Virus record (IMG/VR): IMGVR_UViG_3300008807_000172
Coordinates: 1-48,555 of that record
Reading direction: 5' to 3' (one strand)
Length of the DNA: 48,555 bases
Source: a virus
The notes under the pieces are model-generated. The model saw only the letters and a program-made list of their open reading frames with translations. It was not told the DNA's origin and searched no databases. Positions 3,551-45,954 of the stretch are shown piece by piece. Positions within the stretch are counted from its first letter, which is position 1. Each line of letters starts with the position of its first letter. A program made the translations under genes and the position numbers.

Positions 3551-3748
3551 TCAGGCGGCCTTCGGTTTGAGCAGATCGGCCGGCGCGATGGCGCCGTTGC
3601 TCCACTCGCAGATCTTGATGGCCAGCTCCAGGGTCGGCGTGCGCGTGCCGAGGCGCATCTGGGTGACGTAGGCCCGGCTCACGCCCAGCACCCCGGCCAC
3701 TTGCTTGTCGCTGACCCCCCGGTCCTTCATGTGCTCTGAAAGCGTCAT
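3551..3748 (-). CDS. Cro-like HTH regulator (first gene of leftward early operon)
   Basis: 65 aa from ATG 3748; VSDKQVAGVLGVSRAYVTQMRLG HTH; divergent from CI-like gene. Confidence 0.6.
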   Translation of the reverse strand: MTLSEHMKDRGVSDKQVAGVLGVSRAYVTQMRLGTRTPTLELAIKICEWSNGAIAPADLLKPKAA

Positions 3749-3757
3749 GGGGGAAAG

Positions 3758-3772
3758 GTAGCAGGGTGCTAC
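3758..3772. promoter_or_regulatory. Operator, inverted repeat GTAGCAGGGTGCTAC
   Basis: Perfect GTAGC-N5-GCTAC palindrome in CI/Cro intergenic region. Confidence 0.65.
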
Positions 3773-3773
3773 A

Positions 3774-3802
3774 TTGACACAAGCCCCAAAGATGTAGCTA
3801 AT
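3774..3802 (+). promoter_or_regulatory. Putative rightward promoter for CI-like gene
   Basis: TTGACA (3774-3779), 17-nt spacer, GCTAAT (3797-3802). Confidence 0.45.
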
Positions 3803-3808
3803 GGCTAC
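3794..3808. promoter_or_regulatory. Operator, inverted repeat GTAGCTAATGGCTAC
   Basis: Second GTAGC-N5-GCTAC palindrome, overlaps candidate -10 elements of both divergent promoters. Confidence 0.65.
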
Positions 3809-3849
3809 ACACTGTCGCACGCAATGTGGGCATACTGAAGGAGGTTGAA

Positions 3850-4194
3850 ATGACGCACCGGATAATCGAAATGGCCAAGGCCAACTTTCGTCGGCGGCAC
3901 TTTATAAAGGCGTGGCGCAAGCACCGCGGCTACACCCAGGAGAAGCTGGCCGAGATGATCAGCATCTCCCGGCCCTACCTGGCGCAGATCGAATCCGGCG
4001 CCCGCGACTACAGCCAGGATCTCCTCGAGGCCCTGTCCGAGGCGCTGCGGTGCGAGCCGGCCGACTTGATCATGCGCGACCCGTCGCAACAGGAACTGCT
4101 CTGGACCATCTACGACCAGCTCACGCCGGTGCAGCGCGAGCAGTTCATCGAGATGGCCACGCCCATCGCCCAGACGCTCAAAAAGCGCGCCTGA
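3850..4194 (+). CDS. CI-like XRE-family repressor (no peptidase domain)
   Basis: ATG 3850 with AAGGAGG 6 nt upstream; YTQEKLAEMISISRPYLAQIESG HTH. Confidence 0.7.
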   Translation: MTHRIIEMAKANFRRRHFIKAWRKHRGYTQEKLAEMISISRPYLAQIESGARDYSQDLLEALSEALRCEPADLIMRDPSQQELLWTIYDQLTPVQREQFIEMATPIAQTLKKRA

Positions 4195-4282: not shown

Positions 4283-4297
4283 GTTGCAAATAGCGAC
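4283..4297. promoter_or_regulatory. Operator-family site GTTGCAAATAGCGAC
   Basis: GTNGC-N5-GCNAC pattern upstream of TTGACA 4306-4311. Confidence 0.55.
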
Positions 4298-4305
4298 TCC
4301 CCCTG

Positions 4306-4334
4306 TTGACACGACGTAGCAAATAGCTACTGTT
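4306..4334 (+). promoter_or_regulatory. Putative promoter of QueD/DpdA operon
   Basis: TTGACA at 4306-4311; GCTACTGT region about 17 nt downstream; flanked by two operator-family sites. Confidence 0.45.
4316..4330. promoter_or_regulatory. Operator, inverted repeat GTAGCAAATAGCTAC
   Basis: Perfect GTAGC-N5-GCTAC palindrome overlapping the -10 region. Confidence 0.6.
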
Positions 4335-5819: not shown

Positions 5820-6036
5820 CGAAGAGAAGACCCCTCGGTTGGCTGGAATGTCACCAGAGCGGTACGCGGCGATCCTGTCGAGGCAGGAGCGGGACTGGCC
5901 CAAGCAACGGCAAGGAGCGGCTCAGGGAAACCCCTTCGCCACCCTTTGCCAGCACTGCTGCGGGCGTCACCCGCCGCCGAACGACGAGATTTGCCCGCAT
6001 GAGAGCATCGAACAACTGAAGGCGCGCACCCCATGA
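5812..6036 (+). CDS. Hypothetical Cys-containing protein (74 aa)
   Basis: Internal ATG 5812 of track ORF 5752..6036; CQHCCGRH...CPHE; ATGA coupling to next gene. Confidence 0.5.
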   Translation: MTDEEKTPRLAGMSPERYAAILSRQERDWPKQRQGAAQGNPFATLCQHCCGRHPPPNDEICPHESIEQLKARTP

Positions 6037-6773
6037 CCACCGCCGAACCAACCGATGCCGTGCTCTCGCCCCCGGAAAGCGGGGGGTGGCCGAGTGAGGA
6101 ACAACTGCACTTCGCCGTCAGCACGTTCCTCGCGACTTACAAGGGCAACAACGGCCTCGACGCGATGCGGCAGGCCATCGCCCTGTTCCCGAAAGACAGG
6201 GGGGGGGGATGGCGAGCGGCGCTGGAAACAGCGCAGGCCTACATCGACGAGCTTCCCCACGGCGAGAACTGCTTCCTTCTCAACGACGGTGGCGAGTTCG
6301 ACAGGTGCCGGTGTGGCAAGGACGCTATGGTCCAATACATCGAGGACGTTCTGGTCTTCGACATTACGCCGACGCCAAGTCAAATCCGGATTGACCCGCC
6401 CGCCCCCTCTCAGGAAGGGTGGCGAGACCTGTCCTGTGACGAGCAGAGGGCCTTGGCCGAGCGGATCGCCGGGAACATCGGCTACGTCCTCACGCCTGAG
6501 CCGCCGCACCCTGACAGTCCGCACACCCGTGCTGCCCCCTCTCTGGAAGGGGAAGGGGCTTTGCGGGAGGCGTTGGAAGGTGCGCTGCGCCTGCCGATCA
6601 TCATCGAAGAACAGATGGAGCTTGAGGACTGCGGCGGCGAGGCCGACCGTGAAGACCTCGAACGCTACCGGAAGGACCGCATCGCCATCCTGGCCAGCAT
6701 CCGGTCCGCGCTCTCCGCTCTCTCCACAAAGGAGGGGAAAGAAGAGGCTCTCCAAGGGTCAGAGCAGACCTAA
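6033..6773 (+). CDS. Hypothetical acidic protein (246 aa)
   Basis: Long ORF, translationally coupled; no motif recognised. Confidence 0.55.
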   Translation: MTTAEPTDAVLSPPESGGWPSEEQLHFAVSTFLATYKGNNGLDAMRQAIALFPKDRGGGWRAALETAQAYIDELPHGENCFLLNDGGEFDRCRCGKDAMVQYIEDVLVFDITPTPSQIRIDPPAPSQEGWRDLSCDEQRALAERIAGNIGYVLTPEPPHPDSPHTRAAPSLEGEGALREALEGALRLPIIIEEQMELEDCGGEADREDLERYRKDRIAILASIRSALSALSTKEGKEEALQGSEQT

Positions 6774-9076: not shown

Positions 9077-9262
9077 GAACCGATGCCGAACGTTTGTCAG
9101 ACGGGCGGCGCGGAATGAGTCTGATGGGTTGGAAAAATGCTAATGAAATCCGCGAGATAGAAGAAACGCTCACTGCTTCATGGGCGGATGAGGCCCATTG
9201 AAATCATTGAACATCGTCAGAAAATGTTGCACATAGCGACTTGAAACGTAAGGGATTGCGAG
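9077..9262. other. Putative attP / integrase arm-site region
   Basis: AT-richer non-coding DNA next to int; GTCWGAYGGG at 9096, 9119 and 9267; 15-mer ATGAGTCTGAYGGGT at 9115 and 9263. Confidence 0.4.
9226..9240. promoter_or_regulatory. Operator-family site GTTGCACATAGCGAC
   Basis: GTNGC-N5-GCNAC pattern 23 nt upstream of ORF 9263. Confidence 0.5.
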
Positions 9263-9436: not shown

Positions 9437-9800
9437 GGTTGCTGAAGGTCTCGCTTTTATCGACGCGCTCCCACGGGAAGAGCGGGATGCCTTTCTTGGG
9501 CTGTTTGCCGGAGCGCGTTTTCCGTGGACAATCTACGATAACGGGCGGGGCCCATTCATCGGCAAGGCCGAGTGCGGGTGGGTCGAGGATTGGCGCGGCT
9601 TCTACGCCGAACGCCTTCCAGCCGCCGGCCTGTTCTTCTGGGAGGAAGGCGAAAGCGGCCCTGCCCTTGGCATGGTCCTGAAGGACAACGGCGACTACCA
9701 CACATGGACGCGCATCAACTGCGGACCGACTGAGCTGGGTTGGGGTGTTCGCGAAGCGTGGTGGGACCGGTGGGCCGCAAACGTCGACGACGGAGCCTAA
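9429..9800 (+). CDS. Hypothetical Trp-rich protein (123 aa), cargo gene next to attP
   Basis: GTG start overlapping upstream stop; converges on endolysin stop. Confidence 0.55.
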   Translation: MDRVAEGLAFIDALPREERDAFLGLFAGARFPWTIYDNGRGPFIGKAECGWVEDWRGFYAERLPAAGLFFWEEGESGPALGMVLKDNGDYHTWTRINCGPTELGWGVREAWWDRWAANVDDGA

Positions 9801-10546
9801 CGCCGCCCATTCCTCGCCTTCAGCCACTGGAACACCAGCGCCGCTACGGCCAGCGCCGCGCCGATGATGGCGAGCGTGGCGACGACCTGGCCCAGGGCCG
9901 GGCTCTTGTCGGCGTAGGGCTCGACCGCGTCCGACACGGCCTTGACCGCGACCGGCGCCGTGGCCACCGCGGCCGCGCAGCTGGCGACGAATGACTTGCT
10001 CGTCGGCAACGGCTTCTCCATCGGCGTCGGAGGCGTCTCGATGGCGCGGGTCGTGCTCGACGGCGGGCTCTCGTCCACGCTGCCGGGCTCGTCCGTCGAC
10101 CACAGCTTGACCTCTTCGGCCCGACGCGTGACCAGGCCCGACATCTTGACCTTCTTGCCGGTCTTCGGATCCGTGCCGTAGACGAAGCGGATCAGCTGCA
10201 CCGGCACCTGCTCGAAGGCGCGGGCCTTGAGCACCTTCCAGATCGTCCAGCTCGACACCGCGCCCAGGTTCAGGACGAACGACAGCAGGGCCGCGTACTG
10301 GTTGTCGGTGAGCTCGTCGATCACGGCGCCGGCGCAGGCGCGCAGTTTTCGCGCTGCGTCCTGCAGATCGGCCGCCAGCAGCTCCTCGCCTTTGACCTTG
10401 GGGATCACCCACCCCTTGTGCACGTCCGGCCCGGTGTGGCCCCAGCCGATCGTAAGCTTGCCGGCCGGGCAGATGTAGGCGCGCGAACGCCAGCCCTCGT
10501 GCGCCTTGATGAAGTCGATGGCCTGCTGCGGAATCGGACGAGTCAT
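9797..10546 (-). CDS. GH24 lysozyme-type endolysin with C-terminal transmembrane anchor
   Basis: ATG 10546; FIKAHEGWRSRAYICPAGKLTIGWGHTG; P/S/T linker; C-terminal LGQVVATLAIIGAALAVAALVFQWLKARNGRR. Confidence 0.85.
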   Translation of the reverse strand: MTRPIPQQAIDFIKAHEGWRSRAYICPAGKLTIGWGHTGPDVHKGWVIPKVKGEELLAADLQDAARKLRACAGAVIDELTDNQYAALLSFVLNLGAVSSWTIWKVLKARAFEQVPVQLIRFVYGTDPKTGKKVKMSGLVTRRAEEVKLWSTDEPGSVDESPPSSTTRAIETPPTPMEKPLPTSKSFVASCAAAVATAPVAVKAVSDAVEPYADKSPALGQVVATLAIIGAALAVAALVFQWLKARNGRR

Positions 10547-10752
10547 TTGACGACAATCCCCTTGACGGCGCCGTAGGCCGCGATGGCCAGCACGAGGCCG
10601 ACGACGGCCTTCCACGCGATGGCCCAAACGCCCTTGCCCAGGTCGCTGTAGAAGTTGGTGATGATCTTGCGCTCGAGCGCGTCGGCGATGGCCGCCACGT
10701 CCGCGTCGGTGAGGGTGCGGGTGTCGGGCATCGCTACGCTTTCGGGGGTCAT
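10543..10752 (-). CDS. Putative holin (69 aa, one C-terminal TM segment)
   Basis: VWAIAWKAVVGLVLAIAAYGAV; directly upstream of and overlapping the endolysin. Confidence 0.5.
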   Translation of the reverse strand: MTPESVAMPDTRTLTDADVAAIADALERKIITNFYSDLGKGVWAIAWKAVVGLVLAIAAYGAVKGIVVK

Positions 10753-33331: not shown

Positions 33332-33859
33332 TCATGGCTTAGCCTCCCAAACCTTCCGCTGCTGCTCGTTCCAGTCCAGCAGTCCGATCACCTGGGTGCG
33401 GCAGGCGTAGTAGGCGCCGGCCCAGTCGACGAGGGTTCCGGCCGCGTCAGAGGCGGTAACATCGGAGGGACTGTCGAAAGGTTCCCCGGCAGGCGGGGCC
33501 ACGGCTGCTTCGGAACCTGCGGCGGCACGGTCGAGCACGCGCACAAAGCCAACAGGCAGAGGATAGCGGCGGTCGGTTTCAGGCGAGACATAGACGGGCA
33601 CCTCTCGGATGATGTCGCGGTAGACGATGCGGACGGCCGCCTGGCGGGCTTCGGTTCGGGCGCCCACGGACTCCGTCACGCGCGCGGCCTTGTCGGTTTT
33701 GGCGATCACCTTGATCGCGGCCTTGGTATCCTTCCGCGCCGCCGAGACCTTGGCATTCGCCGCCATCTGGTCTCGGAGCCACCAGGTTGAGCCGGCGCCG
33801 GATGCGAATCCGATGGCCGTGGCGATGGCGAGGGGTTTCCAGATGGGGAGGAGGTTCAT
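33332..33859 (-). CDS. i-spanin (Rz-like)
   Basis: ATG 33859; N-terminal TM PLAIATAIGFASGAGSTWW, then Lys/Ala-rich helical region. Confidence 0.7.
   Translation of the reverse strand: MNLLPIWKPLAIATAIGFASGAGSTWWLRDQMAANAKVSAARKDTKAAIKVIAKTDKAARVTESVGARTEARQAAVRIVYRDIIREVPVYVSPETDRRYPLPVGFVRVLDRAAAGSEAAVAPPAGEPFDSPSDVTASDAAGTLVDWAGAYYACRTQVIGLLDWNEQQRKVWEAKP
33388..33591 (-). CDS. o-spanin (Rz1-like lipoprotein) embedded out of frame in the Rz gene
   Basis: AILCLLALCACS lipobox-like signal followed by Pro-rich sequence; entirely inside 33332..33859. Confidence 0.65.
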   Translation of the reverse strand: MSRLKPTAAILCLLALCACSTVPPQVPKQPWPRLPGNLSTVPPMLPPLTRPEPSSTGPAPTTPAAPR

Positions 33860-34071
33860 GCGGCGGCCTTTCGGCGCTCTAGGATTTCCGCCAGTCGCTT
33901 GGCCTCCTGCTCCGCGATGCAATCGGCGAGGTTCAGGTCAGGGTCTTGGGCGGACAGCCACTGAGCCGTCCCCATGCAGTGCGCCTCGCCCATCTCCCAC
34001 ATCTCGAGGTGGGTCAGGTTGTGCTTGGCCTGCATGGCGTTGAGTTGGTCGGCCATGGTCATGTTAATCAC
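33856..34071 (-). CDS. Hypothetical protein (about 69-71 aa)
   Basis: GTG 34071 or ATG 34063 (AAGGGTG upstream); ATGA overlap with Rz start. Confidence 0.5.
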   Translation of the reverse strand: MINMTMADQLNAMQAKHNLTHLEMWEMGEAHCMGTAQWLSAQDPDLNLADCIAEQEAKRLAEILERRKAAA

Positions 34072-34652: not shown

Positions 34653-35150
34653 TCACTCGTCTGACTCCTCGCGAGTCTGACGGGTCGGCGTAATATCCAG
34701 CAACGGCGGGCGTTCCACGACACCGGGCAACCGCTCACTTAGCGGATGCCCCCCCATATTCAGGGTGTTTGTCACGATTTGGATGAGCTGGCGCTGTCCG
34801 GTTGAGCCGCCACCGACGTCCGGCTTGAGGTCGCCGAAGTGGTCAAGGATGGTCCGAGCGGCCTTAAGCTGCACGTCCTCAGACTGAGCCTCAGCCGCCA
34901 GGCCGGCCACCGTGACCCACGCCTTCTCCCTTTGGCTTTCCATCCACGCGCGTCTTACACGTTCCTTCTCGGCCTTGACGTGAGGCTTCTTGAGCGCCTG
35001 AGTCAGCGAATGTGGCGTATACCCGGTACGCATCGCCGCATCCTTGACCGTGAGGCCGTCAGAAACGATGAGCTGCAACGCCGTGCGTAGCGCAGGGCTT
35101 ATCCGGCCCTTGCGGATCGTCTCGCCATCTCTGTTGACGAGTTCCTGCAT
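34653..35150 (-). CDS. HTH protein resembling a terminase small subunit
   Basis: ATG 35150; GLTVKDAAMRTGYTPHSLTQALKKPHVKAEKERV pattern; 3.3 kb upstream of TerL. Confidence 0.4.
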   Translation of the reverse strand: MQELVNRDGETIRKGRISPALRTALQLIVSDGLTVKDAAMRTGYTPHSLTQALKKPHVKAEKERVRRAWMESQREKAWVTVAGLAAEAQSEDVQLKAARTILDHFGDLKPDVGGGSTGQRQLIQIVTNTLNMGGHPLSERLPGVVERPPLLDITPTRQTREESDE

Positions 35151-35152
35151 GG

Positions 35153-35602
35153 CTATTCGGCGTTCACCAACGCGTGGGCGTCGTACCACCCGTTCACCCA
35201 GGCATCCGGCGCGTCATCCTTGATGCGCAAATGCGTCAGATACGCCCAATACCCCTCCGCATACTCGCGCGCCTCGCGCTCCTCATCCGTCTCCGGCGCG
35301 GGCTCCTCGAGCGCATCCAGCATGTCAGGCTCAACGGCCACCAGGCCGGGCACCTTGAGGGCGGCGATGTACTGGCCGAGCGTGCGGTCCCGCTCGATAC
35401 GCGACCACGGGTCCGCCTTGGCCTCCTTCAGCACGTCCGCCAGGATACCGGGATCTACCCCGCGTTCAGCGACCGTCTTGCGGGTTTCGGACAAGGCGGC
35501 GCTGGCCTGGTCGACAACCGCCATGGCGCCGAACAGGTCATAGGCGGCCTTGGCGATCGTGGCCTGACTGACGTTCGGCAAGGCGAGGGGCTTAGGCGGC
35601 AT
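35153..35602 (-). CDS. Hypothetical protein (149 aa)
   Basis: Start moved to ATG 35602; acidic C-terminal half. Confidence 0.5.
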   Translation of the reverse strand: MPPKPLALPNVSQATIAKAAYDLFGAMAVVDQASAALSETRKTVAERGVDPGILADVLKEAKADPWSRIERDRTLGQYIAALKVPGLVAVEPDMLDALEEPAPETDEEREAREYAEGYWAYLTHLRIKDDAPDAWVNGWYDAHALVNAE

Positions 35603-35981
35603 GTGGGGCGATCCTGCGGAATGAGGAGATCGGCCGGGCGCGTGGCCTGACCTTGGGCGTGGGCGGCGGGTGCGCCTTGAACGGCGTGATCGTGCCGGCC
35701 GCGGTGTAGGACTGCAGCTTGAGGGACTCAGCCATGTCCTGGGGGAGAAGCGCGAAGACGTATCCAAGCGCCTCAAGCCACACCTCGAACATGTAGCTGA
35801 CCTGTAGGCCACGCTTGCCCGACGGCGTGTCAGGATGCTCCAGCTTGGCCGTGTAGCCGTCCTGGAACCCGGCGTGATGGTCCAGGTCGAGGCAGGTCAT
35901 CCCCTTCGCCATGCGCACGTCACGCATGACACGGGCCGCGTCGGTGCGGTTGACGATGCGAAAGGCCGGCAAATCCGCCAC
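35592..35981 (-). CDS. HTH regulator, first gene of the leftward operon leaving the control region
   Basis: MRDVRMAKGMTCLDLDHHAGFQDGYTAKLE XRE-like HTH; GTG 35981 or a downstream ATG. Confidence 0.5.
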   Translation of the reverse strand: MADLPAFRIVNRTDAARVMRDVRMAKGMTCLDLDHHAGFQDGYTAKLEHPDTPSGKRGLQVSYMFEVWLEALGYVFALLPQDMAESLKLQSYTAAGTITPFKAHPPPTPKVRPRARPISSFRRIAPHAA

Positions 35982-36031
35982 GTGAACGCCCCCATTGCGT
36001 TGCGATGAGCATACGGGGCCAAAGGTGAATG

Positions 36032-36046
36032 TTTGCTATATGCGAC
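36032..36046. promoter_or_regulatory. Operator-family site TTTGCTATATGCGAC
   Basis: NTNGC-N5-GCNAC pattern about 50 nt upstream of the 35981 start. Confidence 0.45.
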
Positions 36047-36062
36047 AAACGGGTCGGAATCT

Positions 36063-36081
36063 CACTGCTTCACTGCTTCAC
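36063..36081 (+). repeat. Two overlapping direct copies of CACTGCTTCAC
   Basis: 36063-36073 and 36071-36081 share CAC. Confidence 0.8.
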
Positions 36082-36084
36082 GTA

Positions 36085-36102
36085 GGGGGGGTCGAATCCC
36101 CC
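36085..36102. other. G-run/C-run hairpin GGGGGGG-TCGAAT-CCCCC
   Basis: G7 at 36085-36091, C5 at 36098-36102; a separate C8 run lies at 36121-36128. Confidence 0.5.
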
Positions 36103-36152
36103 TGAAAGACTCTCTCACATCCCCCCCCACCCTCTTCCTGAGAAGTCCAAAT

Positions 36153-36168
36153 TGTATCAGTTGATACA
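36153..36168. promoter_or_regulatory. Inverted repeat TGTATCA-GT-TGATACA
   Basis: Perfect 7-bp arms. Confidence 0.55.
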
Positions 36169-36197
36169 GTGAGCAAATTCAAGGATTTAGCGATTTT

Positions 36198-36229
36198 CAC
36201 TGCTTCACCGGAAGGGGCGTGAAGCAGTG
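36198..36229. repeat. Inverted pair CACTGCTTCAC-N10-GTGAAGCAGTG
   Basis: Exact 11-bp arms at 36198-36208 and 36219-36229. Confidence 0.85.
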
Positions 36230-36296
36230 GGGAAACCCGAGAAGGGCTCCTTACTTTTGGTTGTATTTGGGGTGGCTAGAGCACACGTATAGCGAT

Positions 36297-36346
36297 ATCT
36301 GCTTCACGCGTACATTCGTAATTTCTGGCAGGTCGGTGAAGCAGTG
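36297..36346. repeat. Second inverted pair (atCTGCTTCAC ... GTGAAGCAGTG), 28-nt spacer
   Basis: 9/11 copy at 36297-36307, exact inverted copy at 36336-36346. Confidence 0.7.
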
Positions 36347-36349
36347 GAT

Positions 36350-36364
36350 GTTGCTATTTGCCAC
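36350..36364. promoter_or_regulatory. Operator-family site GTTGCTATTTGCCAC
   Basis: GTNGC-N5-GCNAC pattern 30 nt upstream of ATG 36394. Confidence 0.5.
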
Positions 36365-36393
36365 TTTTGCCAGTCAGTCGAGCCTGTGCCACC

Positions 36394-36591
36394 ATGACGG
36401 GTATGGATCAGTTCATCGACGGGCTCGCGCATGTCATCGCCGCGGTGATCGCCTGGGTTGGCGTGAGCCTGGTGGGCGCCGCCGCCGTAATCGTCGGCTA
36501 CGCGATCCAATGCCTAATCTTGGTCGCCCTGATCCTGCCGGTGATCCTTTTGGTCGACCGCTTCAAGGCCAAGCGCCGCAAGACGCCTTAG
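36394..36591 (+). CDS. Small membrane protein (65 aa, two TM segments)
   Basis: ATG 36394; VIAAVIAWVGVSLVGAAAVIVGYAIQCLILVALILPVILLV then KAKRRK. Confidence 0.5.
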   Translation: MTGMDQFIDGLAHVIAAVIAWVGVSLVGAAAVIVGYAIQCLILVALILPVILLVDRFKAKRRKTP

Positions 36592-36714
36592 GGCCTCTGG
36601 ACGGCCGGGCTGATCGGCGGCCCGCAGGCGCCAGGCATCTATTGCATCAAGCATCGGACGCTGAACGCGCACCGTCACAGGCTCGCTGTCCAGCCGAGGA
36701 CGACCCCGCTTCAT
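36514..36714 (-). CDS. Ribbon-helix-helix (CopG/Arc-like) DNA-binding protein
   Basis: ATG 36714: MKRGRPRLDSEPVTVRVQRPMLDAIDAWR...EALRRLAALGLE; 3' end overlaps the convergent membrane ORF by 78 nt. Confidence 0.55.
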   Translation of the reverse strand: MKRGRPRLDSEPVTVRVQRPMLDAIDAWRLRAADQPGRPEALRRLAALGLEAVDQKDHRQDQGDQD

Positions 36715-36719
36715 GTGTC

Positions 36720-36755
36720 TTGACACACCCCATTTTATGACATTATATAATGTCA
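36720..36755 (+). promoter_or_regulatory. Promoter-like TTGACA/TATAAT with 18-bp perfect palindrome TGACATTATATAATGTCA
   Basis: TTGACA 36720-36725; TATAAT 36746-36751; palindrome 36738-36755. Confidence 0.6.
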
Positions 36756-36820
36756 GCTTGGGAAGGGGTTGCAGCCCCTGCCCAAGCCTAACCGCAACCC
36801 GATCATGGAGGATCAGGGCC

Positions 36821-37144
36821 TTGGCTTCTCACGCCACTACCACACCGCACACGCCAATTCATCCCCCGACGCTGCCCGCCCTGGTGGCGCTGTACTGGGA
36901 CACATGGGGGCGCCTGGAAAAGGCCGCCGAAGACACCACGGAGCAACGACGCCTGGGCGCCCTCCTGAAACGGGTGTTCCACCGCATGATGGAGGCGCCG
37001 GCCTCCAGTCCGAGAGAATTGGCCGACAAGGCCGAGGCGTTCGCCCATTGGGAAACCGAGTACGTCGCAGACCTGCACCTGTCCGGTCACCCGGCGGCGC
37101 GTCTGTGGCGCGACATGCTTGCTCTGGCGGAGCGCAGCCAATGA
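36821..37144 (+). CDS. Hypothetical protein (107 aa)
   Basis: TTG 36821 with GGAGGA 8 nt upstream; C-terminus coupled by ATGA to next gene; start uncertain. Confidence 0.45.
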   Translation: MASHATTTPHTPIHPPTLPALVALYWDTWGRLEKAAEDTTEQRRLGALLKRVFHRMMEAPASSPRELADKAEAFAHWETEYVADLHLSGHPAARLWRDMLALAERSQ

Positions 37145-37622: not shown

Positions 37623-37637
37623 GTCGCCAATAGCAAC
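37623..37637. promoter_or_regulatory. Operator-family site GTCGCCAATAGCAAC
   Basis: GTNGC-N5-GCNAC pattern just before TTGACT 37645-37650. Confidence 0.5.
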
Positions 37638-37664
37638 ATTCCTGTTGACTCACCCCGATTCCTG

Positions 37665-37679
37665 TTCACAAATAGCGAC
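37665..37679. promoter_or_regulatory. Operator half-site TTCACAAATAGCGAC
   Basis: Shares AAATAGCGAC with the 4283 site; left half degenerate. Confidence 0.35.
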
Positions 37680-37720
37680 ATTCCAGCCCGAACCGGGCGC
37701 CCAGATAGGGACTCAAGGAT

Positions 37721-38014
37721 ATGTCGGACACCACCCGAAAGACCGCCACCGCCGCGCGCTACGAGGCCAGCACAGCCACGATCCGCAGCGTGCCGGAAAA
37801 CTACTGGCTGGCGACGATGGACAGTTGGGACGGCGCCCCGAACCACGAGGCCAACGCCCACATCATGGCCGCCTCGTTCCAGATGCTGGACATCCTCCGC
37901 ATCACCGAACGCAACCTGAGCAGCCTCATCGCCGCCAAGCACTCCGACGCCATCCTCATGACGACCTGGCGCGAGGAAGTGCGGAAGGCGATCGCAGCGG
38001 CGGAAGGCCAATGA
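37721..38014 (+). CDS. Hypothetical protein (97 aa)
   Basis: ATG with AAGGA upstream. Confidence 0.55.
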   Translation: MSDTTRKTATAARYEASTATIRSVPENYWLATMDSWDGAPNHEANAHIMAASFQMLDILRITERNLSSLIAAKHSDAILMTTWREEVRKAIAAAEGQ

Positions 38015-39932: not shown

Positions 39933-40528
39933 TCAAGCAAACCATTCTCAACCGCCTCTCCGGTGAAGTCATGTTCACCGCCGAGATTGACTGTAGCGCC
40001 GATGCTCTGCCTTCCGTAAAGCTGGGCCTCGCCGTTAAGGCGGCGGTGAAAGAGCGGGCCGACCTGTCGTGGGCCAACCTGTCGGGGGCCAACCTGTCGG
40101 GGGCCAACCTGTCGTGGGCCAACCTGTCGGGGGCCAACCTGTCGGGGGCCAACCTGTCGGGGGCCGACCTGTCGTGGGCCAACCTGTCGGGGGCCAACCT
40201 GTCGGGGGCCGACCTGTCGCGGGCCTACCTGTCGGGGGCCAACCTGTCGGGGGCCAAAGTCAACGGCGATCCCGTAGCCCGCCTTCTGGCGAGCGTCCAG
40301 CGGCTTATCGAGCCCTACGCCTTCCACGCTTTCGAGATGGAAGCGGGGGGCGTGAAGATCGCGGCCGGCTGTCGCTGGTTCTCGTGCGCCGAGTTCCGCG
40401 CCCACGTCGCCAGCAAATACCCAGACACTCCCAAGGCCGTCGAAACGCTGCGGATCATCGAGTTCATCGAAGGCCGGGCCTCTGACCTTGGTGTCGCCCT
40501 GGAGCCCGCCTCGGCTGTTGCCGCCTAA
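39929..40528 (+). CDS. Pentapeptide-repeat protein (199 aa)
   Basis: GTG 39929 (GTGA overlap); 13 consecutive A(D/N/Y)LS(G/W/R) pentapeptides plus a degenerate AKVNG unit, then a non-repeat C-terminal domain. Confidence 0.9.
40056..40250 (+). repeat. 13 tandem 15-bp units GGGCCAACCTGTCGG (near identical)
   Basis: Read directly; encodes the pentapeptide repeats. Confidence 0.95.
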
Positions 40529-41685: not shown

Positions 41686-41979
41686 ATGGTGAATCATCTA
41701 CATACCATAGTTCTCGCTGCGTCCGCGTTGCTGGTTGTCCAGAAGAACACGACCGCAGAGAACAAGGCCTGCCGCAAGCGCCGCAAGGCTGCCATCACTT
41801 ACCTGACGGACGAGGTCGCCCGGCCCCTGTCCGCACGCGATGACCCGCAGGCCCGTAGCGAGGCTGTCGAGTGGCTGTTACGGCAATGCCGGGCCTGTAG
41901 CCGCTGTCCAAAGCCGCTCAAGTCGCCAGGGCATACGTCCGCTTCAGCTGACCCCGCACGTCCTCGCGTACCTCGGTGA
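41686..41979 (+). CDS. Doubtful ORF (97 aa) in the convergent gap
   Basis: ATG 41686; N-terminal hydrophobic stretch; 3' end overlaps primase gene end by 62 nt. Confidence 0.25.
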   Translation: MVNHLHTIVLAASALLVVQKNTTAENKACRKRRKAAITYLTDEVARPLSARDDPQARSEAVEWLLRQCRACSRCPKPLKSPGHTSASADPARPRVPR

Positions 41980-44215
41980 CCATCTCGCCCTCGATCAGGG
42001 CGGCCACGATGGAGCGCACCCGGTTGGTGTCCAGGCGGCCCCGGATCTTGCGCGTCAGCTCGGCCTGCGTGATCCGACCCTTGCCTTCGGCGCCGCCCGC
42101 CTCGATCAGGCCCAGAACCATCTGCTGCTCGGCCTGACGGTCGTTCTCGCTCATGAACCGGCCCGTCTCGGCGATCATGCGCTCGGCCGACCATAGGGCC
42201 AGGTCGCGGCCCCAGGCCATGTCCTCGGCGGTGACGGCCGGCGCGTCTTGATCAATGCCGATCGCGCGGATCGTGGCCAGGCGAACGGCCATCTCGGCGG
42301 TGCGGGCGAGGAAGGATTCATCGGCCTCGCGGGACTCGATGTGCCGCCCCAACGCCTGATAGACCTCGCGTCCGCCCGGTCCCCAGGGCACGATGTGCGC
42401 GGGGGCGTCGGCGCCCAGGTTGTGGGCGGTGGCGTTGGCCAAGGCATTGCCGGCGTAGAAGATGCGGTCCAGCGCCGCCTTGATCGACTCGGGCAGGACG
42501 TTGCCATCGACGCTCGGATCAACCTCGGCCGGGCGCACCCGCGTGGAGATGACCAGGAAGCGGTTGAGGAATCCGTTGTGGACGTCGGCGCCCTGCAGCG
42601 CGCGATAGAACTCCTCCTGCGTGCTGGCGCCGTAGATCGACAGGGCCGGGCTGTGGATGATCCGGCTCGGCTCGTTGGCGTACTCCGGCGTCGGGAAGCT
42701 CTTGAACGAGATGCCCCAGGCCGTGCGCAGGATGCCGCTGATCGCCTGCTCGTGGCTGGACGAGCTCTTGCGGTTGTTGATCTTGGCCAGGAAGCTGCCG
42801 AACTCGTCCATGGCGCATAGCACCAGCGGGTGGCGGTCAAGCCGCTTGACGACCGACGAGTAGGACATGAACTGGCTGGGCCCATGCTCGCGCGGCATGA
42901 CCGCGGGCATGACCTGGTTGATCTGGTCCAGCGCGTGGTTCTTGCCCGCCCCCGTGGGCGCCAGCGCCAGCACGTACAGGTGCGTGGCCGAGCGCGTCGG
43001 GCCGGCGAACTTGCGGCCGGCGGCCGTGCCCACCAGCGTGAGCGCGGCGCCCAGGGCCAGGCCCGGCTGCGGCTTGCGGCCGGAGTCGGTGATCCAGTGG
43101 GTCAGGGCGCCGAGGAGGCCGGGAACCTGCAGGAGGTGGGGGGGAATCTCCTCGGAATCTATGCACGTTGACGCGACCTGTTCAGATTTTTCCGGAATCT
43201 GCACAGGTTCGGGAACAGGCGCAGGCGCCGGCGCCACAAACACCGGCTCCGCCCCCATATCCAACCGATCCTTCAGCCACCGGAACGCATCGTCGAGCGC
43301 CCAGTTGTTGGCCGCGCACACCAGGTCGAGCGGGCTGTAGGCCACGTCGGCGCCGAAGTCGCGGATGCCCTCGGGGTGGATCTTCAGGTTCTTCTTGCGC
43401 TTCTCCAGCCGCTCGCCGGTTCCGCTCGGGCGCCAGGTGGCGACGGCCTCGTATCCCCCGCGCGCCGGCCGCAGTCCGTACAGGTCGAGCGCCGGCACCC
43501 ATGCCGCCATGTTGCGCATGGCCGCGTCGTTGACCTCCTGCCAGATGCTCGGATCGTCATCGTGCCGCTCGAGCGGGCGGCGGCTGACGCGCGCGGCCTC
43601 GGCCACGTCCCCGCCCCAGCCCAGGTGCGCCAGCGTGTCCTCAAGCCGCTCCAGACAGGTCTCGTCGAACAGGGGCAACTCATGCGCGGCCACCGGCCCG
43701 GCCATCCAGCGGTAGGTGGGCCCGTGCGGGTGGACGGACGGCGGCATGACCGTCTGGCGCCCGGCCGCCAGCAGGTCGACGACCCGCTTGCCCTTGATGT
43801 TGTAGCCCTTGGACGTCAGCGTCGGCGGCGCACGGAAGAAGGCCGACAGGCCCTTGGCGCCGGTCTTGATCATCGGGCTGGCCGGAATGGCGGACCTGAT
43901 CTCGGCCACCTCGTCGGGGTCGTGGCTGTCGATGTCGATGACCAGCAGGCGGTGCGCGCCGATGGCCGTGCCCACGACCACGCCGACGTTCGCCTCGGCC
44001 CAAGACTTCCAGGCCGTCAACTCGAACACCGTCGGCGCCCGGTCGCGGAACTGCGGCCAGGCGGTCAGCGCGCGCCACCGCCCGTTCGACCGCTCGCCCG
44101 GCGCCTTGTCGCGCGGTAGGCAGGGGATCGGGTGGTAGCCCAGTGCGCACAGCTGCTCGTAGGCCTGGGCGAAGGGGGAGTCGTTGGGGGGTGACATCGA
44201 GGGACTCGGATTCAT
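41918..44215 (-). CDS. Bifunctional primase-polymerase (PrimPol) N-domain fused to DUF3987-type P-loop helicase
   Basis: LLVIDIDSHD, MPPSVHPHGPTYRW in N-domain; LALAPTGAGKN Walker A and LCAMDEFG Walker B in C-domain. Confidence 0.8.
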   Translation of the reverse strand: MNPSPSMSPPNDSPFAQAYEQLCALGYHPIPCLPRDKAPGERSNGRWRALTAWPQFRDRAPTVFELTAWKSWAEANVGVVVGTAIGAHRLLVIDIDSHDPDEVAEIRSAIPASPMIKTGAKGLSAFFRAPPTLTSKGYNIKGKRVVDLLAAGRQTVMPPSVHPHGPTYRWMAGPVAAHELPLFDETCLERLEDTLAHLGWGGDVAEAARVSRRPLERHDDDPSIWQEVNDAAMRNMAAWVPALDLYGLRPARGGYEAVATWRPSGTGERLEKRKKNLKIHPEGIRDFGADVAYSPLDLVCAANNWALDDAFRWLKDRLDMGAEPVFVAPAPAPVPEPVQIPEKSEQVASTCIDSEEIPPHLLQVPGLLGALTHWITDSGRKPQPGLALGAALTLVGTAAGRKFAGPTRSATHLYVLALAPTGAGKNHALDQINQVMPAVMPREHGPSQFMSYSSVVKRLDRHPLVLCAMDEFGSFLAKINNRKSSSSHEQAISGILRTAWGISFKSFPTPEYANEPSRIIHSPALSIYGASTQEEFYRALQGADVHNGFLNRFLVISTRVRPAEVDPSVDGNVLPESIKAALDRIFYAGNALANATAHNLGADAPAHIVPWGPGGREVYQALGRHIESREADESFLARTAEMAVRLATIRAIGIDQDAPAVTAEDMAWGRDLALWSAERMIAETGRFMSENDRQAEQQMVLGLIEAGGAEGKGRITQAELTRKIRGRLDTNRVRSIVAALIEGEMVTEVREDVRGQLKRTYALAT

Positions 44216-44885: not shown

Positions 44886-45517
44886 GCCAGCACCGGGAAT
44901 TGCTCGACCACGATGTTCCAGCAGGCCTCGGCCACGGCCCGGTGCTCGGCCTGGGTCTCGGGGCCCATGCGCAGGTGGCAGTAGTGCAGCCACGAGCGCA
45001 GGGTGCCGGCCATGTACAGACGGCTGGGGGTCAGCCCTTCGGGTAGCAGCGCGCGGGCCTGCTCCTTCGCGATGCCCAGGCCAAGGGCCGCCTCGTACAG
45101 CCGCTTGCTGTGCTCGGCCTGACTGATCAGGGCGCGTCGCCACCAGTTCGCCACGGTCTCGTCGGCGCAGGGGAGCGAAGACTGCCGGTCGCTCGGGTGC
45201 CGCATGCGGCACTCGCGCTCGTGCGTCAGGGCGCCGACCGCCGCGTACCGCTGGCTGAACTCCTGAAACGAGAACGAGCGGTGCCGCAGGATCTGCCGGG
45301 CGATGTCCCTGGTCGTCTCGATCTCGATGGTCAGGCTGACCATCTCCAGAGGCGACCACTCCTTGCGCCGAATGAGTGACTTGATCAGCCGAGCGCCGGT
45401 GGCGTGGTTGTTCTGGTTCGCGGCGCTGGACACGCGGGCGCAGTAGGCCAGCAGTTGCTCCGCCCCCGCGACGCCCTCGACGACGGGGCGGCTGATGGCG
45501 ATGAGGCGGGCGGTCAT
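44882..45517 (-). CDS. thyX: FAD-dependent thymidylate synthase ThyX
   Basis: RHRSFSFQEFSQRY signature; ATG 45517 in ATGA overlap. Confidence 0.9.
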   Translation of the reverse strand: MTARLIAISRPVVEGVAGAEQLLAYCARVSSAANQNNHATGARLIKSLIRRKEWSPLEMVSLTIEIETTRDIARQILRHRSFSFQEFSQRYAAVGALTHERECRMRHPSDRQSSLPCADETVANWWRRALISQAEHSKRLYEAALGLGIAKEQARALLPEGLTPSRLYMAGTLRSWLHYCHLRMGPETQAEHRAVAEACWNIVVEQFPVLA

Positions 45518-45954
45518 GCGGCCACCGGCATCTCGGCCCGGCCCCGCCGCCGCTCGCATGGATCGTAGGTCGGGCGCGGGTTTTCGATAGCCTCCTCACA
45601 GGCGGCAACTCCCTGATCCGTGAGGAAGTAACCGAGCCCCCAACTCGTACCGATGGCGGGTCGGCCGATCTTGTTGCGCAGTTTGCAGACGAAGACGTCG
45701 ATGATCTTGCACTCGGGCTCGTCCATGCCGCCGTACATGGCGTCCATCAGGCCCTGCTTGGTGACCACCGCGCCGGATCGGGCGAACAGGGCATCCAGAA
45801 GGGTTGCTTCCTTGCCGGTCAGTCGCCAACGGTTCTTGAACGCGGCCATGCGCTCGCCGTCGCGGACCAGGTTGAGCTCGCGCCGGAGGTAGTCGTTCTC
45901 CTCCCTCAACGTCTCCAGCTTCTCGTATAGGTCGTTGGCTTGTTGCGGTGTCAT
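45514..45954 (-). CDS. OmpR/PhoB-type winged-helix DNA-binding protein with N-terminal coiled coil
   Basis: LTGKEATLLDALFARSGAVVTKQGLMDAMYG...IDVFVCKLRNKI...WGLGYFL. Confidence 0.65.
   Translation of the reverse strand: MTPQQANDLYEKLETLREENDYLRRELNLVRDGERMAAFKNRWRLTGKEATLLDALFARSGAVVTKQGLMDAMYGGMDEPECKIIDVFVCKLRNKIGRPAIGTSWGLGYFLTDQGVAACEEAIENPRPTYDPCERRRGRAEMPVAA

Follow-up and report, generated by a model that had tools for sequence, protein, structure and literature searches.

The gap and its repeats

The window, by which we mean the whole 48,555-nt stretch of IMG/VR virus record IMGVR_UViG_3300008807_000172, was assembled as a circular phage genome of 48.5 kb whose ends overlap by 99 bp, and its GC content is 67%. 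The subject of this work is its non-coding gap at 35982..36393, which we propose carries a replication origin and flanking control sites. The gap separates a leftward late/packaging operon from a rightward operon and lacks coding periodicity in a third-position GC (GC3) frame plot. Along the genome, the integrase and attachment site (att) are followed by the long late operon, whose distal end holds the lysis and fiber genes. At the gap, this operon begins with genes for a 129-aa helix-turn-helix (HTH)-like protein (35592..35981, minus strand), a 148-aa protein and the small terminase subunit (TerS; 34653..35189, minus strand; PHROG 2538, E = 4e-7), with the large subunit (TerL) further on. To the right of the gap lie the rightward operon of small genes and then a convergent early operon, which encodes an SNF2 helicase, an OmpR-type winged HTH (wHTH) protein, ThyX and a 765-aa PrimPol-DUF3987 protein before wrapping around to the genes for RusA and the Cro-like and CI-like proteins. 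The structural genes, for portal, capsid, tail tube A and B and internal virion proteins, resemble those of T7, and the gene order agrees with those of Bordetella phage BPP-1 and Burkholderia phage BcepC6B. We take the phage to be a temperate BPP-1-like podophage, and we found no nucleotide match between the window and deposited phages.

An earlier note, made from the sequence alone, had listed a dense set of elements in the gap. Upon analysis, every one of them was present, and only the positions of a G7 and a C5 run move one base to the right. The 11-mer CACTGCTTCAC occurs as five exact copies and one 9/11 copy, all six inside 36063-36346 (284 bp). When up to one mismatch was allowed, the whole window held 7 copies against 0.82 expected, a number reached by 0 of 100 shuffles. 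The 9-mer core CTGCTTCAC was found six times (0.34 expected), always within 36065-36344 and nowhere else in the window. Numbered from left to right, iterons 1 and 2 are exact, overlapping direct copies 8 bp apart on the plus strand (36063-36073 and 36071-36081). Iterons 3 and 4 form a perfect inverted pair of exact copies with a 10-nt spacer and centers 21 bp apart (36198-36208, plus; 36219-36229, minus), and folding of this hairpin as a single strand gave z = -4.5 relative to shuffles. Iterons 5 and 6 make up a second inverted pair with a 28-nt spacer (36297-36307, plus, 9/11; 36336-36346, minus, exact), and the imperfect iteron 5 holds an exact CTGCTTCAC at 36299-36307. The repeats are non-random and surround the AT minimum of the genome. 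Two plus-strand iterons stand to the left of an AT-rich center (36139..36199, GC 0.30-0.35), our proposed unwinding element, and four stand to its right in the order plus, minus, plus, minus. The center contains the palindrome TGTATCA-GT-TGATACA (36153-36168), and whether GC is taken over 40, 60 or 80 bp, the lowest value in the genome falls in the gap, at 36128-36199. On a larger scale, the 1-kb window with the gap (36001-37000) has a GC of 0.585, and the remaining windows range over 0.62-0.72. Neither a sigma-70 consensus promoter nor an intrinsic terminator was detected in the gap, and searches there for DnaA, CtrA and IHF consensus sites returned none.

Outside the gap, the earlier note had pointed to a 10/11 copy of the 11-mer at 9171, in the attP region. 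This copy does exist, but it is solitary and within chance expectation. The surrounding segment (9170-9260), just downstream of the integrase gene, contains this solitary TCACTGCTTCA, an operator-family site (9226-9240, one mismatch; see below) and the second-lowest GC of the genome, and a small coding-like open reading frame (ORF) apparently starts at ~9264. We also considered a tRNA gene or a tRNA-derived att remnant for the sequence GGGTCGAATCC and rejected it: ARAGORN found none, Rfam gave no match at the gathering threshold and otherwise chance-level ones, and relatives of the phage have no T-arm-like sequence at that place.

A search of public genomes for the exact inverted 11-mer pair gave 15 matches, mostly unrelated hairpins. 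Two Novosphingobium loci (L051, 1373-1500; L053, 7362-7482) carry the overlapping doublet of the window, CTGCTTCACTGCTTCAC, and its inverted copy GTGAAGCAGTGAAGCAG around CCCCTATAGGGTG, followed by many TGAAGCA repeats. Both lie near a conserved 201-aa ORF, L051 also adjoins IS66-type genes, and no homology to any window protein was found nearby. This element may be the origin of another replicon that uses the same word, and the shared word hints at a sphingomonad host for the phage.

Relatives share the layout and differ in the repeated word

To find out what is conserved at the gap, we collected relatives as the contigs of homologues of the 129-aa protein together with IMG/VR and JGI loci reached from their alignment. 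The 129-aa protein has a handful of homologues; single-protein searches in IMG/VR and a profile search of genome contigs with the HTH alignment gave no close relatives. All collected loci have a gap of 350-650 bp upstream of the 129-aa homologue (360-450 bp in L001, L007 and L010). In nearly every relative, a word of 9-13 nt is present 4-8 times in this gap, with copies of both orientations placed around an AT-rich stretch. The architecture is conserved, the layout being common to at least 20 metagenomic relatives, and the repeated word changes by lineage. The words are CAAGATATGT / TACATACCT in L001 and L032, CTTACGTTAAGG in L010, CGAAGYCCA in L033, CCGTATTTC in L012 and L043, CGAGTGAGG in L013, L014, L015 and L023, CGAGTGTCAT in L021 and CGAGTGTCAC in L025. 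The AT-rich center of the window contains a 12-mer, GAAGTCCAAATT (36142-36153), that is the iteron of L033 (CGAAGTCCAAA), where six copies, as doublets in both orientations, lie at 2150-2311. In the window, this 12-mer may be left over from an earlier specificity or act as a seventh, weak site.

The layout extends to isolated phages. The BPP-1 gap (NC_005357, 26574-26808) has two copies of TTTGCCTCG, an AT-rich center of ~65 bp with its own palindrome and an inverted doublet, and the syntenic gaps of BcepC6B and E332 have two copies of ACGATAGGG, a center and an inverted doublet. All three phages show the pattern of two tandem 9-mers, an AT-rich center with a palindrome and two inverted tandem 9-mers. 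They share with the window the synteny of att, lysis genes, T7-like structural genes, TerL, TerS, a small gene, the gap, primase, Cro, CI and integrase, and they differ in having another primase-helicase with another C-terminal tail and no G-run. Small palindromes within AT-rich centers were found in BPP-1, BcepC6B and the L013 clade. We found no published function for the BPP-1, BcepC6B or E332 gaps in the literature covered, which did not include the BPP-1 genome paper. As for its packaging mode, BPP-1 is said to carry out generalized transduction.

Four short contigs (L002-L005) all begin 234 nt upstream of the gene, and we considered whether these starts mark a physical genome end. We rejected this, because L001 has a 37-nt inverted repeat there and the starts, which fall within one of its arms, are an assembly break.

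The C-terminal tail of the PrimPol-helicase tracks the word in a sister clade

The PrimPol-helicase (41918..44215, minus strand) is our proposed reader of the 11-mer. It combines an archaeo-eukaryotic primase (AEP)-type PrimPol domain (Pfam Prim-Pol, 1.8e-18) with a DUF3987 helicase-type NTPase (1.9e-8) and a C-terminal tail, and its PHROG label is DNA primase/helicase. From PHROG helicase labels and general knowledge, we take DUF3987 to belong to helicase superfamily 3 (SF3). The tail, i.e., the last ~70 aa (41921-42130), is predicted to be a winged helix. Its AlphaFold2 (AF2) model has a predicted local distance difference test (pLDDT) score of 77 and the topology H-beta-H-H-beta-beta, and the Foldseek matches listed were mostly winged-helix DNA-binding domains (PadR, MarR, ROK, RTP), at E values of 2e-3 or worse. 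Only four homologues of the tail were found, so the alignment behind the AF2 model is shallow, and a sequence search of the PDB with the tail gave no match. The DnaA-domain-IV-like protein that the earlier note had ascribed to this genome could not be recovered in any ORF scanned with Pfam.

To ask which protein goes with the repeated word, we extracted TerS, PrimPol, HTH, TerL and SNF2 sequences from all loci and compared their identities with repeat sharing. The Spearman coefficients were 0.72 for the tail, 0.66 for the HTH protein, 0.54 for the helicase core and 0.46 for TerS, all of them inflated by physical linkage of modules and shared ancestry, so our argument rests on discordant pairs. 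In the pair L012 and L013, the helicase cores are 98% identical, the C-terminal tails are 27% identical and the repeats are unrelated (CCGTATTTC versus CGAGTGAGG). At the nucleotide level, homology between these two loci is lost at the 3′ end of PrimPol and in the gap, while most of the 3.2 kb in between is 87-91% identical. This interval also includes a 70%-identical block and three small non-homologous patches, and the segments with the two L013 ORFs of these patches (69 aa and 70 aa) also vary between L013 and the repeat-sharing L014. L019 and L021 match at 99.87% identity over the stretch that begins 240 nt upstream of the HTH gene and runs through TerL; TerS and TerL are 100% identical in this pair, and the repeats and winged-helix tails both differ. 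Conversely, whenever two loci had tails of 99% identity or more, they had repeat words in common (Jaccard index 0.29-0.82), even where TerS is 56-59% identical. In these relatives, the word covaries with the tail. Among the proteins tested, only the last ~70 residues of the PrimPol-helicase track the repeat word in the sister clade.

Other candidate readers did not follow the repeats. TerS was rejected since it is 100% identical in L019 and L021 despite different repeats, and 56-59% identical between L013 and the repeat-sharing L014, L023 and L016. The 129-aa protein, the first gene product of the late/packaging operon, is XRE-HTH-like by eye and conserved beside the gap in all relatives; it had no Pfam or PHROG match and no tblastn match in phages. 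Its putative recognition region is kept while the repeats change, and the protein is 97-100% identical in L019 and L021, which have different repeats. SNF2 is 69% identical between L013 and L014, which share repeats. The beta-strand of the ribbon-helix-helix (RHH) protein is the same in L013 and L021 apart from one D-to-E change, and their repeats are different. The type of XRE protein does not follow the repeats, and a homologue of the OmpR-type wHTH protein (45514-45954) was found in one relative only.

Operator-family sites bracket the gap

Both edges of the gap carry members of a second sequence family, the 15-bp palindrome GTnGC-N5-GCnAC. A scan of the window gave 9 matches at 7 distinct sites (3794, 4283, 4316, 9226, 36032, 36350 and 37623) against 0.49 expected, and we read by eye an extra GTAGC-N5-GCTAC copy at 3759 that the scan did not report. 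The left site of the gap, GTCGCATATAGCAAA (36032..36046, minus strand, one mismatch to the family pattern), adjoins the start of the HTH gene and is conserved in L010 as TTTGTCGCATATAGGAAACATTCAC. The right site, GTGGCAAATAGCAAC (36350..36364, minus strand), is exact to the pattern and marks the right edge. Two further operators (3759..3808) lie between the Cro-like (3551-3820, minus) and CI-like (3826-4194, plus) genes, both of which encode HTH_3 domains. Consistent with the earlier note, the sites at 36032 and 36350 are genuine members of the CI/Cro operator family, and the gap is therefore probably under immunity control rather than outside it. Within the gap, only these two bracketing sites, and not the 11-mers, belong to a CI/Cro-type operator set. 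The family sites may be bound by CI, by Cro or by the conserved 129-aa HTH protein, and the last of these is a possible reader of the operator-family sites rather than of the 11-mers.

Elsewhere in the genome, the family is paired in the CI/Cro gap (3750-3850), downstream of the CI-like gene (4283-4330) and upstream of the gene at 37721 (37623-37690). At 37623-37690 and 4283-4330, the operators alternate with the motif CTGTTGAC(A/T)C, which contains a perfect TTGACA -35 hexamer.

A conserved G-run lies beside the AT-rich center

Between iteron 2 and the AT-rich center are a small inverted repeat, G7-TCGAAT-C5 (G7 at 36085-36091, C5 at 36098-36102), and a homopolymer that reads G8 on the late-operon (minus) strand and C8 on the plus strand (36121..36128). 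On the minus strand, the C7 of the inverted repeat is 29 nt downstream of the G8 run. When folded, the G7-TCGAAT-C5/C8 region was no stabler than shuffles (z = +0.24 and -0.41), and the inverted repeat matched no tRNA and no Rfam family. We rejected an intrinsic terminator or attenuator at this hairpin, as there is no T-run, the terminator scan was empty and its folding is like that of shuffles.

The run itself is widespread. A G7-10 run on the late-operon strand, 100-360 nt upstream of the HTH gene and beside the AT-rich stretch, was present in 20 of 22 lineages and absent from the BPP-1 and BcepC6B gaps. A C-run partner 18-41 nt downstream of the G-run was found in only 8 of the 20, so the hairpin is not the conserved feature. 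When L019 and L021 were compared, the G-run fell on the replication-module side of the recombination boundary. Among contigs with otherwise identical flanks, the run is G8, G9 or G10 long (L013/L015 versus L014/L034; L016, L022, L023), differences that may reflect real slippage or homopolymer assembly error.

Other features of the genome

Immediately right of the gap, a strongly coding-like 65-aa membrane ORF (36394-36591, plus) overlaps an RHH-like ORF (36514-36726, minus) by 78 nt. The latter is conserved in L007 (43% identity), and the two cannot easily both be real as called. Further right, the divergent operon of the window encodes a pentapeptide-repeat protein (39950-40528), in the place where L001 and L007 have a DnaN sliding-clamp gene. 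The L013 clade has an ArdA-like anti-restriction gene, identified by eye, in its divergent operon beside the proposed origin (L013, 4596-5162; L012, 8102-8668). An embedded Rz/Rz1-type spanin pair (33332-33922 / 33388-33591) lies within the packaging end of the late operon, 23 kb from the endolysin gene (9797-10627) at the opposite end of the same operon. A G10 homopolymer (6199-6208), located between the CI-like gene and the integrase inside a coding-like ORF (6033-6773, plus), is a likely frameshift hot spot; a comparable tract reportedly occurs in a methylase gene of BPP-1.

Interpretation of the gap as a replication origin

We consider it probable that the inner gap (~36063-36346) is the phage's origin of vegetative replication, with the PrimPol-helicase as initiator. 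In the mechanism we propose, the six CACTGCTTCAC sites would act as iterons bound by the C-terminal winged-helix domain of the PrimPol/SF3-type helicase. Helicase rings would gather on the sites that flank the AT-rich center at 36139-36199 and then melt it. The helicase would thus load itself, and its N-terminal PrimPol domain would make the first primers. In the lysogen, the outer palindromes at 36032 and 36350, as CI/Cro-family operators, would silence the divergent promoters and transcription through the origin. Iteron binding, melting, priming and repressor control are what we infer for this phage from its sequence and from its relatives.

Several points weigh against this reading, beyond the inflated correlations noted above. 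The covariation is clean in a sister clade, where PrimPol shares only 43-46% identity with that of the window, and homology and synteny are what extend it to the window. The PrimPol of L007 is the closest available to that of the window (77% over the last 287 aa, the only part in the locus) and its putative recognition helix is identical, although the L007 gap has no clear repeats and none above shuffled expectation. The L024 tail is 97% identical to that of L022, yet L024 has few clear repeats. The GC skew of the genome gave no origin signal; it is uninformative as an origin indicator because it is dominated by gene orientation. In the Staphylococcus aureus pathogenicity islands (SaPIs), the origin lies immediately downstream of rep, whereas the proposed origin of the window is 5.5 kb from the helicase gene, between divergent operons. 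The gap neither adjoins the helicase gene in this way nor is accompanied by a second cis site like crr of phage P4, features that define particular systems and not the mechanism. In addition, helicase binding at the 11-mers could also serve transcriptional control, and it is possible that a packaging site lies elsewhere in the gap.

The same repeats could instead serve a regulator of the two divergent promoters, late and rightward, as operator or activator sites and play no part in replication. Promoters of both operons must lie in the gap, the inverted pairs with 10- and 28-nt spacers look like dimer operators, and genes for HTH, RHH and OmpR-type wHTH proteins lie nearby or belong to the early operon. 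However, the HTH protein keeps its putative recognition region as the repeats change (97-100% identity in L019/L021 with different repeats), the RHH and XRE types are out of step with the repeats and the OmpR-type protein has a homologue in a single relative. Moreover, the gap already has well-defined operators of a separate family at both edges, none of the sites is overlapped by a sigma-70 consensus promoter, and a set of six to eight sites placed around the genome's AT minimum is laid out like an origin. We therefore regard a purely regulatory role as unlikely. The earlier note had named a replication origin and a second regulatory circuit independent of CI as its two options. For the 11-mers, the circuit found no support, given the single relative with an OmpR-type wHTH protein and the HTH recognition region that is kept while the repeats change. 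The origin gained support from the covariation of the word with the winged-helix tail in relatives and from a layout that fits self-loading helicase origins; it is the match to the SaPI Rep and P4 alpha type of design that separates the two.

Two further explanations were weighed. As a packaging site (pac or cos) for TerS, whose gene is three genes downstream, they would be comparable to pacL-pacC-pacR of SPP1 or cosB of lambda. This is suggested by the position of the gap directly upstream of the HTH-(148 aa)-TerS-...-TerL operon, by the BcepC6B GenBank record, which begins exactly at the repeat doublet, and by the likeness of repeats flanking a central segment to SPP1 pac as it is said to be arranged. 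We nevertheless find it very improbable. Identical TerS proteins occur with different repeats (L019/L021), and TerS proteins of 56-59% identity with identical repeats. The L019/L021 recombination boundary falls between the repeat/G-run block and the HTH-TerS block, which places the repeats with the replication side. As the E332 record shows by its own start, the beginning of the BcepC6B record is not necessarily a physical end, and the short contigs that begin in the L001 gap break at the 37-nt inverted repeat and not at a genome end. Least probable of all is that the sites are read by a host protein or are a word of wider use among mobile elements. Such a view would account for the Novosphingobium loci, which carry CTGCTTCACTGCTTCAC ... 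GTGAAGCAGTGAAGCAG and TGAAGCA repeats with no homologues of window proteins nearby, but that element has IS66 genes next to it and may be the origin of a replicon in its own right. Turnover of the word by lineage, in step with a domain of a phage protein, is unexpected for a host factor, and the gap is without DnaA, CtrA or IHF consensus sites.

If the inner gap is indeed the origin, it would provide an origin and an initiator-site pair for BPP-1-like temperate podophages, a group for which we found no published origin assignment, and for a large group of uncultured freshwater and soil relatives. At the level of annotation, this would be an ordinary functional class, an origin, and no new system. 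Among the relatives, winged-helix tails and their matching iteron words make up a natural series, in which one clean tail swap sits on a helicase core of 98% identity. This series could be used for work on the recognition code, for orthogonal replicon design and for the study of replication incompatibility between co-infecting phages.

The G-run poses a small and testable question of its own, since an invariant G-run beside the unwinding element lies outside the SaPI and P4 models. Possible roles include a GC clamp that limits melting, an R-loop or primer-forming tract and a start site for PrimPol. GC-rich segments have been proposed as GC clamps in the oriV of RK2 and of RSF1010. One proposal, which we hold to be doubtful, is that the strand-specific G7-10 tract is a functional part of a new origin design and not a passive GC clamp. 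Transcription freed from the flanking CI-type operators would cross the tract toward the late operon, and the G-rich RNA would pair with the C-rich template to give a persistent R-loop or G-quadruplex-type structure. This structure would open the duplex or give a 3′ end to the PrimPol-helicase, so that firing would be coupled to de-repression. Cases comparable to such a structure are the mitochondrial conserved sequence block II (CSB II; G6AG8) and the G-run of ColE1 RNA II. Alternatively, the tract could be a fixed template start site for the PrimPol domain.

Comparison with known origin systems

SaPI origins consist of 6-12 iterons and a central AT-rich region, with at least two iterons per side that point in opposite directions (PMC9371898). 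An SF3 helicase recognizes these iterons through its winged-helix domain (WHD) and then loads itself, probably as two hexamers; in some islands it is one polypeptide with the primase (PMC9371898). The proposed origin in the window resembles this arrangement in its SF3-type helicase, its predicted C-terminal winged helix for short iterons, its array split by an AT-rich region and its opposite orientations; fusion of primase and helicase, as in SaPI5, and specificity by lineage are also shared (PMC9371898). We detected no sequence homology between the window system and SaPI. The two further differ in that SaPI words are 5-6 nt long compared to 11 nt in the window, in that the primase of the window is an AEP PrimPol, and in that SaPIs have no counterpart of the G7-10 run or the flanking CI-type operators.

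What the window has in common with the class formed by SaPI and P4 origins is a clustered word above chance, an AT-rich center with iterons on both sides, some of them opposite, and an encoded helicase with a primase and a predicted C-terminal winged helix. The co-change of iterons and winged helix was seen in the sister clade (L012/L013, L019/L021, L013/L014). The P4 alpha protein unites primase, SF3 helicase and a C-terminal winged-helix origin-binding domain in one polypeptide. The P4 origin has 8-bp type I iterons in both orientations and is remote from the alpha gene, and a second cis site, crr, is required. On what is generally known of P4, the window is like it in the three-domain polypeptide, the iterons in both orientations and the remote origin. 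It differs from P4, whose primase is not an AEP PrimPol, and the sole extra near-copy of its word, at 9171, is solitary and statistically unsupported.

By domain layout, ORF904 of plasmid pRN1 is also similar, with an AEP prim/pol, an SF3 helicase and a winged-helix DNA-binding domain (PMC2777425, PMC4234260). This archaeal plasmid differs in its origin, a stem-loop region downstream of the gene and not an iteron array. Taken together, these likenesses suggest that the gap is an iteron origin of a known mechanistic kind, whose variant features are its remote position, the immunity operators on either side and the conserved G-run.

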